DNA from: a plasmid
NCBI RefSeq assembly: GCF_054482595.1
Contig: NZ_JBTHVH010000004.1
Length of the DNA stretch: 64,000 nucleotides
Strand: one strand, 5' to 3'
Below, piece by piece: positions 58,145 through 59,500 of the stretch (positions are counted from its first letter, which is position 1; the number at the start of each line of letters is the position of its first letter). Both the position numbers and the translations under genes were made by a program. Under the pieces are notes generated by a model that had not been told where the DNA came from, did not search any database, and was given only the letters and a program-made list of their open reading frames with translations.

Positions 58145-58166
58145 TCAGAAAACGGAATCTATGGTC
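58145..58166. repeat. Outer 22 bp of the Tn21-family IR, separated from the inner part by an IS
   Basis: GGGGTCGTCTCAGAAAACGGAA. Confidence 0.8.
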
Positions 58167-59484
58167 ACTCCCGTTTTTGCAACACCGATTTTGACGACAA
58201 GTTGGCTTGCTTGAATCTATCCGGCGTCTGAATGGGATTTTATTCCCGCGCCTCGATGAGTTCCGCGCCTGATGAACCTCCAGAAAATATACGGCTTCAA
58301 TGAGCCTTTCCGTTTTACAGGTTCCTCAACAGGCCGGTGGGCCGTTAGTATCATCAATATCAGTATTCGCAAAACCAGATGAATGATTGTTTAAACTGGT
58401 GTATTTCTGCCTTTATGCTTCGTAAGTTTGCTGTCGCGCCGTCAGTGCCCAGGCTATTCTGGCCAGCTTGTTTGCCAGAGCACAGGTGACGACAAAGTTG
58501 CTTTTCCGACACAACAACTCCCTGACCCAGTCGGCCAACTTGCCAGACTGGTGTTCCAGTTTTTGTATGAATACCCTGGCACACTGAACCAACAAAGTTC
58601 GGATCTTTTTGTTGCCCCGCTTGCTAATCCCTAACAATGTCGTCCGACCTCCCGTGCTGTACTGTCGGGGTACCAGCCCTGTTGCCGCCGCAAAGTCACG
58701 GCTGCTGGCGTACTGCTTCCCGTCGCCAATCTCAGTTGAAATAGTACTGGCAGTCAGCGTTCCAACGCAGGGAATACTCAGCAAGCGCTGTCCAACCTCA
58801 TCTTCGTCCAACTTTCGTTTCAACTGAGATTCCAGATCTTTAATCTGCTCAACAAGATAGTGATAATGCTGTTGTAATTTCAGCAGTAACTGGCTGAGAT
58901 AAAGAGGCAAACTACTGTCCTCAAGAAGGGTACTCAGTCGACTAATAACGGCAGCACCTCGCGGAACGCTGATACCAAATTCCAGCAGAAAAGCATGCAT
59001 CTGATTAGTTGTTTTCACCTTATCCTGAACCAGGGATTCACGGACACGATGCAGAGCTCGCATTGCCTGCTGAGATTCGGTTCTGGGCTGCACGAAACGC
59101 ATAGATGGACGTGATGCTGCTTCACAGATAGCTTCAGCATCAACGAAGTCATTTTTGTTGCTTTTAACGAATGGGCGGACAAATTGCGGTGATATCAGCT
59201 TTGGAAAATGCCCTAACTCTTCCAGCTTGCGTGCCATAAAGTGAGAACCGCCACAGGCTTCCATCGCGATGGTTGTTGCCGGGCATGTCGCCAGAAATTC
59301 GATTAGCTTTGGTCGGGTGAATTTTTTACGGTAAACGGCCTTCCCACGATGATCCTGACAATGAATATGGAAAGAGTTCTTACCCAGATCGATACCAATA
59401 AGCGCAATGTTTTCCATGATGGTTCTCCGAATGAAAGCCTGTCCTCAGCATAGTACTGGGAAGGAGGGAGTGACCATCTCATTA
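58167..59484 (-). mobile_element. IS4321/IS5075-like IS110-family element inserted in the Tn21 terminal IR
   Basis: About 1.3 kb lying exactly between the two halves of the 38-bp IR; encodes an IS110-family transposase. Confidence 0.75.
58413..59417 (-). CDS. IS110-family transposase
   Basis: 334-aa ORF MENIALIGIDLGKNSFHIHCQD... Confidence 0.8.
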   Translation of the reverse strand: MENIALIGIDLGKNSFHIHCQDHRGKAVYRKKFTRPKLIEFLATCPATTIAMEACGGSHFMARKLEELGHFPKLISPQFVRPFVKSNKNDFVDAEAICEAASRPSMRFVQPRTESQQAMRALHRVRESLVQDKVKTTNQMHAFLLEFGISVPRGAAVISRLSTLLEDSSLPLYLSQLLLKLQQHYHYLVEQIKDLESQLKRKLDEDEVGQRLLSIPCVGTLTASTISTEIGDGKQYASSRDFAAATGLVPRQYSTGGRTTLLGISKRGNKKIRTLLVQCARVFIQKLEHQSGKLADWVRELLCRKSNFVVTCALANKLARIAWALTARQQTYEA

Positions 59485-59500
59485 AATAAAGCACGCTAAG
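59485..59500. repeat. Inner 16 bp of the Tn21-family IR
   Basis: AATAAAGCACGCTAAG overlapping the tnpA stop. Confidence 0.8.

Follow-up and report, generated by a model that had tools for sequence, protein, structure and literature searches.

We analyzed a 64-kb stretch of plasmid DNA, hereafter called the window and always meant at its full length, and conclude with high confidence that it carries an intact IS5075 at the canonical site in the Tn21 end repeat IRtnp, that this insertion was most probably guide-RNA-directed, that the Tn21 hosting it is a dead remnant, and that the insertion was inherited. The presence of IS5075 in the end repeat of Tn21 is already known and very common, being found in thousands of plasmids. 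Only three items can be considered mildly new, namely a guide-target map for IS5075/IS4321, an apparently retargeted relative from Serratia, and a variant of the Tn21 TnpA with a deletion of five residues.

The split end repeat and the insertion point

The Tn21 IRtnp was found in two parts, each represented by a single exact match on the plus strand of the window. The outer 22 bp, GGGGTCGTCTCAGAAAACGGAA, are located at 58136..58157; no second match to this 22-mer was present in the window within three mismatches, and none is expected in shuffled sequences. The inner 16 bp, AATAAAGCACGCTAAG, occupy 59485..59500 and overlap the stop codon of tnpA. Joining both halves results in the 38-bp sequence GGGGTCGTCTCAGAAAACGGAAAATAAAGCACGCTAAG. 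Exactly this sequence is found unbroken as the IRtnp at the tnpA end of Tn21 in plasmid R100 (locus L031), our empty-site comparator. According to this comparison, the insertion added 1327 bp, and target bases were neither duplicated nor lost. The original prediction had described the repeat as split into 22 bp and 16 bp by a 1.3-kb IS, and with both halves unique and their junction equal to the R100 IRtnp this description is confirmed. Of the interval it had assigned (58145-59500), the end is exact; the start was misplaced by 9 bp into the repeat, the true start being 58136.

The sequence by itself does not settle to which side of the boundary one T belongs, and a 22/16 split fits as well as a 21/17 split. 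Since sequencing of circle junctions places the ambiguous T on the left end of the IS (PMC5001619), the 22/16 split is favored.

All IR-borne copies examined, among them the one in the window and the two of R751, agree in having the left end of the IS next to the inner part of the repeat (...TTAGCGT...ATT) and its right end next to the outer part (TTCCGTTTTC...GACCCC). The insertion is located at the canonical position and in the single known orientation. A split into 16 + 22 bp by IS5075 has been described for Tn1696-like elements (PMC5725488), and the targets of IS5075 comprise Tn21-like terminal inverted repeats as well as look-alike sites such as ureC (PMC8269217). As a consequence of the fixed orientation, an IS at the IRtnp end has its transposase gene downstream of tnpA and in the same direction. 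In the window, this gene reads outward, co-directionally with Tn21 tnpA, and is located 78 bp beyond the stop codon of tnpA. Read-through from tnpA, if true, could couple the expression of IS5075 to that of its host transposon. A scan of the window for unoccupied IS5075 targets revealed none better than two mismatches to the 15-bp core.

Anatomy and identity of the element

The features of the element and of its outer flank are as follows.

58136..58157, plus strand: outer half of IRtnp, flanking the IS on the right in IS orientation
58158..59484, minus strand: complete IS5075, 1327 bp, with defined ends and full-length identity to annotated copies
59478..59484, minus strand: left terminal extension TAATGAG, 7 bp, IS positions 1-7
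59466..59477, minus strand: left subterminal inverted repeat ATGGTCACTCCC, 12 bp, a 12/12 complement of the right repeat
58413..59417, minus strand: transposase gene, 334 aa, with a DEDD/RuvC-like N-terminal and a C-terminal Tnp domain
58158..58412, minus strand: 3' non-coding region, 255 nt, predicted source of a seekRNA/bridge RNA
58161..58172, minus strand: right subterminal inverted repeat GGGAGTGACCAT, a 12/12 complement of the left repeat
58158-58160, minus strand: right extension AGA, 3 bp, located 3' of the right subterminal repeat

The transposase contains the Pfam domains PF01548 (residues 7-146, E = 1.4e-20) and PF02371 (Transposase_20; residues 210-286, E = 4.5e-20) and reaches 341.9 bits against the NCBIfam model NF033542, "IS110 family RNA-guided transposase", at a cut-off of 140. 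It carries the motifs GIDLGK (from residue 8), MEACG (52), NDFVDA (89), and QYSTGG (252), the last of which belongs to the C-terminal domain. This domain shows homology to the PDB structures of the IS621 and ISCro4 recombinases (E about 1e-12). Non-coding sequence is distributed unevenly around the gene, with 255 nt downstream and 67 nt upstream, the latter being counted from the IS tip and including TAATGAG and the left repeat; this distribution is that of the IS1111 group. IS1111-type elements are distinguished from IS110-type elements by subterminal repeats of 11-13 bp, by asymmetric terminal extensions (left, 7 bp; right, 3 bp), and by a long downstream non-coding region (PMC11187229), and all three are present here. 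A further feature of the group, insertion without target-site duplication, is shown by the joined flanks being equal to the R100 IRtnp. The 1327-bp element belongs to the IS1111 group of the IS110 family.

Comparison with plasmid records showed 58158-59484 to be 100% identical over all 1327 bp to copies annotated as IS5075 in at least 3600 records. In addition, 707 E. coli genome records carry IS5075-annotated copies with at least 99% identity to the window element. The transposase of the 100%-identical copies, WP_000427619.1, is named "IS5075 family" by PGAP. Among the best 5000 plasmid records, approximately 3700 had a best match of at least 99% and approximately 1250 one of 90-95%, with the records sampled from the latter band being annotated as IS4321. 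Against both IS4321 copies of R751 (IS4321L/R), the identity of the window element was 93.1-93.3%; the abstract of Partridge and Hall from 2003 (J Bacteriol 185:6371) reportedly gives 93.1%, equal to the figure for R751 IS4321 and the window element obtained here. Within the coding sequence, IS5075 and IS4321 are separated by approximately 80 differences (~8% of nucleotides), which are mostly silent and lead to only 4-7 amino-acid changes. By the ISfinder convention, one IS name is applied at a nucleotide identity of at least 95%. Being 100% identical to IS5075-annotated copies and 93% identical to R751 IS4321, the element is, judged by its sequence, IS5075 and not IS4321, a name that rests on the PGAP annotation together with the 93% distance from R751 IS4321. 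An IS110-family element at the known IS4321/IS5075 target in the Tn21 IR had been predicted originally; this is supported, and the expected match to IS4321/IS5075 was obtained as well.

Host transposon and plasmid context

The IS5075 insertion adjoins the remains of a Tn21, which are delimited on their other side by IS26.

59496..62447, minus strand: Tn21 tnpA, 983 aa, co-oriented with the IS5075 transposase gene
62450..62862, minus strand: remnant of Tn21 tnpR, about 49 codons short at its N-terminal end, cut by IS26
62863-63682: IS26 truncating tnpR

Between 59485 and 62862, the sequence has 0 mismatches to the Tn21 of R100 over 3378 bp, one 15-bp deletion aside. This deletion is located in tnpA at 61606/61607, where TGGCCACCGAGGGCA was lost in frame between 9-bp direct repeats, shortening TnpA from 988 to 983 aa. 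Neither res nor an integron, a mer operon, or a second IR (searched within three mismatches) was found in the 64-kb window. The Tn21 is a dead 3.4-kb remnant and not a complete transposon. An assignment of the host to TnAO22, to a Tn5051-like transposon, or to "TnAs3", prompted by the PGAP label and by PMC6052338, was rejected, as the sequence is base-for-base that of R100 Tn21. The PGAP designation "TnAs3 family transposase" is generic and is also given to the tnpA of R100's own Tn21.

The surrounding region is the IS26-rich multiresistance region of an IncHI2-type plasmid, with seven IS26 copies and one IS1006-like element in the window. At least 30 plasmids from E. coli, Salmonella, and Klebsiella carry the segment 58100-59540 (1441 bp, 36 bp of which lie beyond the IR) at 100% identity. 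Several have sizes of 200-400 kb, and the one examined, pTB-nb4, is typed as IncHI2A. Matching plasmids carry floR, tet(A), cmlA, blaOXA-10, and similar genes. Because many such plasmids have this junction and the adjoining outside flank in common at 100% identity, the insertion was inherited with the plasmid lineage and is not recent.

Predicted guide RNA and its target

The 3' non-coding region has a minimum-free-energy fold with a z-score of -2.85. Within this fold, we predicted a target-binding loop with the following features.

58274..58324, minus strand: predicted target-binding internal loop, on which minimum-free-energy folds of the full region and of sub-segments agree
58293-58306, minus strand: apical hairpin GGCU-CAUUGA-AGCC of the predicted loop
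58307..58316, minus strand: predicted T guide AAAACGGAAA, pairing with the target top-strand sequence TTTCCGTTTT at positions -1 to +9 relative to the insertion point
58281..58290, minus strand: predicted B guide AUAUUUUC(UG), seventeen nt downstream of the T guide

The loop is closed by a predicted stem GAACCU/AGGUUC, with the T guide on its 5' side and the B guide on its 3' side. With 10 nt, the T guide matches the target over a longer run than any other part of the non-coding region, and matches of at least 10 nt occurred in 32 of 2000 shuffles (~1.6%). The B guide is identical to the target top strand over TATT|TTC (the vertical bar marking the insertion point) and hence complementary to the bottom strand at (A/T)TATT|TTC(CG), over 8 nt from -5 to +3 and, with one U-G wobble, up to +5. 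The two guides face each other across a single predicted internal loop, and their matches, which are short and AT-rich, overlap in the target where the insertion took place. Beyond IS position 1105, only 1-2 differences in 223 nt separate the element from IS4321, none of them in the target-binding loop. The single stem change observed, in the decayed copy L012, is uncompensated, and complete copies differ little. A search of 58000-59700 against Rfam 15 gave no match at E <= 1. Candidates for donor-binding guides were limited to matches of 5-6 nt to the joined IS ends (CUCAU, AUAGAU, and CUCAUU in the apical hairpin) and were judged too weak to be assigned.

For four IS1111-type elements (ISEc11, ISKpn4, ISPa11, and ISPst6), the downstream non-coding region gives rise to a seekRNA co-purifying with the transposase; this RNA is needed for circle formation and insertion and is reprogrammable (PMC11187229). 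One segment of it pairs with the top and the other with the bottom strand of the target, with the top-strand match located 5' of the bottom-strand match and both overlapping in the target (PMC11187229). The guide assignment proposed here for IS5075 fits this published seekRNA/bridge-RNA mechanism, and for the cluster of IS4321/IS5075 the supplement of Durrant et al. (PMC11208160) lists a bridge RNA predicted to lie in the right end.

Natural insertion sites and an apparently retargeted relative

A scan of genome contigs for the 19-bp left end returned 28 loci, many of them at contig ends. Together with four fetched matches, this genome-wide scan provided unique flanks of natural insertions, 23 on the left side and 10 on the right. 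The Burkholderiaceae loci L003, L016, L017, L019, and L029, being fragmented or decayed and having no recognizable right end, were left out of the analysis of guide/target covariation. In the natural flanks, high information content was confined to positions -5..-1 (ATATT) and +1..+10 (TTCCGTTTTC). Sites outside the IR, in a yfeC-like gene of E. coli (L033), in Serratia (L013), and in Edwardsiella (L020), share only this core. A published 13-bp consensus and the look-alike site in ureC (PMC8269217) agree with it. The T and B guides together may explain the conserved core ATATT|TTCCGTTTTC of IR and non-IR sites alike, and this map is possibly undescribed for IS5075/IS4321.

Locus L008 of Serratia marcescens, a relative with 82% identity, is inserted into a different target, ...ACAATAAT|TTCGATAACC..., and the two sides of its loop read GUAUAUCGGAAU and GUAUAAUUUUUCUG. 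Guides and targets of both elements were compared in all combinations, with pairing runs given for the 5' side and the 3' side of the loop.

L008 guides against own target: 9 / 8, across the insertion point
L008 guides against Tn21 target: 6 / 7, off-register
IS5075 guides against Tn21 target: 10 / 9
IS5075 guides against L008 target: 5 / 5

In L008, the T guide pairs best in a register that is one base away from that of IS5075. Next to the L008 copy, we detected no Tn3-family transposase gene; the target of this copy may, thus, be an isolated IR-like sequence. Natural retargeting has been shown for ISEc11 and ISXne4 (PMC11187229), and the Serratia relative suggests, at the level of sequence comparison, that the clade of IS5075 has likewise been retargeted naturally via changes of its guides.

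Alternative explanations

Three other explanations of these data were considered, concerning the identity of the element, the origin of its position, and the way in which its target is read. IS4321 and IS5075 are alike in their length of 1327 bp, have identical ends, and share the same target; furthermore, approximately 1250 of the best 5000 plasmid records fit best at 90-95%, with those sampled being annotated as IS4321. An assignment to IS4321, or to a hybrid between it and IS5075, would nevertheless have to be reconciled with only 93.1-93.3% identity to both R751 copies, with approximately 80 coding differences, and with a 100% match to IS5075-annotated copies over the entire 1327 bp, making this identity extremely improbable. 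A different origin of the insertion, in which the two IR halves were united by recombination between two IS5075 copies residing in different IRs or by another IS-mediated rearrangement, has a precedent in the hybrid flanks of locus L005, which combine a non-IR left flank with a Tn21-type outer IR half, and would suit a region that is a heavily rearranged IS26 mosaic. However, the two halves in the window join to the exact IRtnp of R100 Tn21, the outer half being of the IRtnp type, and many plasmids preserve the whole junction, outside sequence included, at 100% identity. As no extra event is required to account for this arrangement, we consider such a history very unlikely and favor direct insertion of IS5075 into the Tn21 IRtnp.

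The remaining explanation assumes that the transposase protein reads the IR directly and that the 3' non-coding region does not act as a guide. To our knowledge, no experiment on the IS5075 RNA itself has been published, and the proposed guide matches are, as stated above, short and AT-rich. On the other hand, the non-coding region is essential and reprogrammable in the four IS1111-type elements tested (PMC11187229), the NCBIfam family is named for an RNA-guided transposase, and the protein is homologous to the IS621 bridge recombinase. In addition, the conserved target positions coincide with the guides, and guide and target change together in L008. Recognition by protein only is, consequently, a highly improbable account of the observed target specificity, and we retain guide-RNA-directed insertion of IS5075 into the IRtnp of Tn21 as the preferred reading.

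Circle junction and proposed mechanism

Joining the ends of the IS in silico revealed one additional feature.

58177..58182, minus strand: TTGCAA, candidate -35 box, part of a predicted promoter only once the IS ends are joined in a circle

In a simulated circle junction, this box is combined with a -10 box GATAAT at a spacing of 17 bp (TTGCAA-17-GATAAT, score 9/12); a promoter scan of the integrated state found no such site. A junction promoter has been reported for ISEc11 (PMC11187229) and a putative -35 box for the circles of IS4321/IS5075, which are abundant in culture (PMC5001619).

The mechanism proposed for the window IS5075 is modeled on experimentally studied relatives. Its DEDD/serine recombinase would excise the element as a circle, with the joined ends creating a promoter. 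A seekRNA/bridge RNA derived from the 255 nt that follow the transposase gene would bind the recombinase and present, in its internal loop, two short guides, AAAACGGAAA directed to the top strand of the target and AUAUUUUC(UG) directed to the bottom strand. The overlap of both guides at the crossover point would then restrict insertion to (A/T)TATT|TTCCGTTTT.

Consequences for the transposon and the plasmid

Tn3-family ends need a contiguous 38-bp repeat. With 22 bp and 16 bp parted by 1.3 kb, the IRtnp end should, thus, be destroyed as a substrate of TnpA. Immobilization of this Tn21 end by IS5075 is plausible but moot, since the transposon is already a fragment and its second end is absent from the window. 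Our search of the literature for a direct test of whether an IS in the IR blocks Tn21 transposition yielded nothing usable. Any such block would be reversible in principle, as the IS5075 of the window is intact and has the correct target on both flanks, and for IS4321 the 2003 abstract of Partridge and Hall is said to describe the detection of a precisely reconstituted target. For ISEc11, circle formation requires the correct target on both flanks, and a rejoined empty site was not detected (PMC11187229).

An IS5075 or IS4321 in the end repeat of a Tn21-family transposon is a standard annotation landmark, which delimits transposon remnants in multiresistance regions. In the window, it marks the outer boundary of the dead Tn21 fragment. 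Being apparently intact and correctly flanked, this copy is probably active, and an active copy can seed more insertions, e.g., into ureC of Klebsiella or the yfeC-like gene of E. coli. The guide map represents a small addition to the current picture of seekRNAs and bridge RNAs. Combined into one reading, a hitherto undescribed guide map, retargeting of the clade in the manner of L008, and coupling of IS5075 expression to tnpA read-through remain a tentative proposal, which we consider rather doubtful as a whole.

Comparison with known systems

The host sequence corresponds to the Tn21 of R100/NR1, with IRtnp, tnpA, and the 3' part of tnpR being the same base for base apart from the tnpA deletion. 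In contrast to R100/NR1, the window remnant is devoid of res, In2, mer, and IRmer, its tnpR is truncated by IS26, and its tnpA carries the 15-bp deletion. Compared with IS5075, the window element has the same 1327 bp, 12-bp subterminal repeats, TAATGAG/AGA extensions, and 334-aa DEDD transposase, and has likewise entered a 38-bp IR of the Tn21 family between its bases 22 and 23, in one orientation and without duplication; no difference was detected, and it represents another copy of this IS. The IS4321 of R751 shares length, ends, target, and orientation with the window element. Its predicted target-binding loop, including both guides, is identical, and the rest of its 3' non-coding region is nearly so. 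It differs in a nucleotide identity of 93.1-93.3% and in approximately 80 mostly silent substitutions in the transposase gene.

Among RNA-guided systems, the seekRNA elements ISEc11, ISKpn4, ISPa11, and ISPst6 (Siddiquee et al. 2024) encode their RNA where it is predicted for the window IS5075, 3' of the transposase gene, and in the same order, the match to the top strand preceding that to the bottom strand. A DEDD recombinase and an internal-loop RNA pairing with both target strands around the crossover are features of the seekRNA systems and of the IS621 bridge RNA (Durrant et al. 2024; Hiraizumi et al. 2024), to which the predicted RNA would correspond. IS621 possesses a donor-binding loop, whereas no equivalent could be assigned convincingly to IS5075, for which RNA and guides are predicted only. 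The seekRNA elements form a circular intermediate with a junction promoter, matched here by the promoter of the simulated IS5075 junction. The systems differ in the kind of site addressed: seekRNA and IS621 systems target REP, attC, or chromosomal sequences, whereas the IS5075 of the window targets the end repeat of a transposon.

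Uneven divergence between IS5075 and IS4321

Comparison of the IS5075 copy in the window, including its non-coding part at 58158-58412, with the IS4321 copies of plasmid R751 showed that the differences are distributed very unevenly along the element. The transposase gene (1005 bp) carries about 80 substitutions, only 4-7 of them amino-acid-changing. A further 5-6 substitutions fall within the first 32 nt past the transposase stop codon, and only 1-2 are found in the other 223 nt of non-coding sequence. This pattern indicates that the putative RNA-coding part is either strongly constrained or recently exchanged.

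Genetic context in the window

The window is a typical multiresistance mosaic built by IS26 on an IncHI2-type plasmid, hosting seven complete IS26 copies in addition to a lone terminal repeat of the IS26 type and one IS1006-like element.

IS6-family elements, Tn21 remnant and adjacent ORF in the window
62863-63682: complete IS26 copy, truncating Tn21 tnpR
6794, 9717, 13034, 16989, 38151 and 44786 (starts): other IS26 copies
47524: lone IS26-type IR
56908-57726: IS1006-like IS6-family element, with a 237-aa transposase at 56961-57674
57759-58091, minus strand: hydrophobic ORF of 110 aa
61606/61607: 15-bp in-frame deletion relative to R100 Tn21, inside tnpA (59496-62447, minus strand)

The 110-aa ORF, flanked on one side by the IS1006-like element and on the other by the outer Tn21 IR end, is also present in the matching plasmid pTB-nb4, there annotated as "hypothetical protein" (WP_223366082.1). 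Within tnpA, the missing 15 bp are TGGCCACCGAGGGCA, the loss being bracketed by 9-bp direct repeats TGGCCACCG, and the encoded TnpA is five residues (about 282-286) shorter than that of R100 Tn21. This deletion variant also occurs in several other plasmids at 100% identity; the 15 bp are retained in most relatives at 99.6%.

Insertion sites of related copies

Copies of IS5075 or IS4321-like elements were also found at non-transposon sites. In the E. coli 266917_2 chromosome (L033), the copy at 301-1627 splits a yfeC-like regulator gene, and two further copies occupy chromosomal sites in Serratia and Edwardsiella (L013 and L020). These three sites have only the core (A/T)(A/T)ATT|TTC(C/T)GTTT in common with the Tn21 IR, the bar marking the insertion point. 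The IS5075 copy (99.8% identity) on a 3.8-kb Tolumonas MAG contig combines a non-IR left flank, ...TCAGACATAATACT, resembling a chromosomal site on a Klebsiella michiganensis chromosome contig (L024), with the outer IR half of Tn21 type on its right. These hybrid flanks suggest that either two IS copies recombined or the metagenome assembly is chimeric.

A more distant relative of 1321 bp was located at 8103-9423 of locus L008 (Serratia marcescens 106R, NZ_VFMJ01000001.1). A search for a Tn3-family tnpA adjoining this element found none. It shares 81.8% identity and the same ends with IS5075. It is inserted at a different, Tn3-IR-like site, TGAGGTCAGTTTGGTTATCGAA|ATTATTGTACGTTAAG, and the 13-nt GGGAAUAAAAUCCC hairpin region of IS5075 is missing from its non-coding part. 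The predicted target-binding loop of this relative is changed on both sides, in a manner matching its own target.
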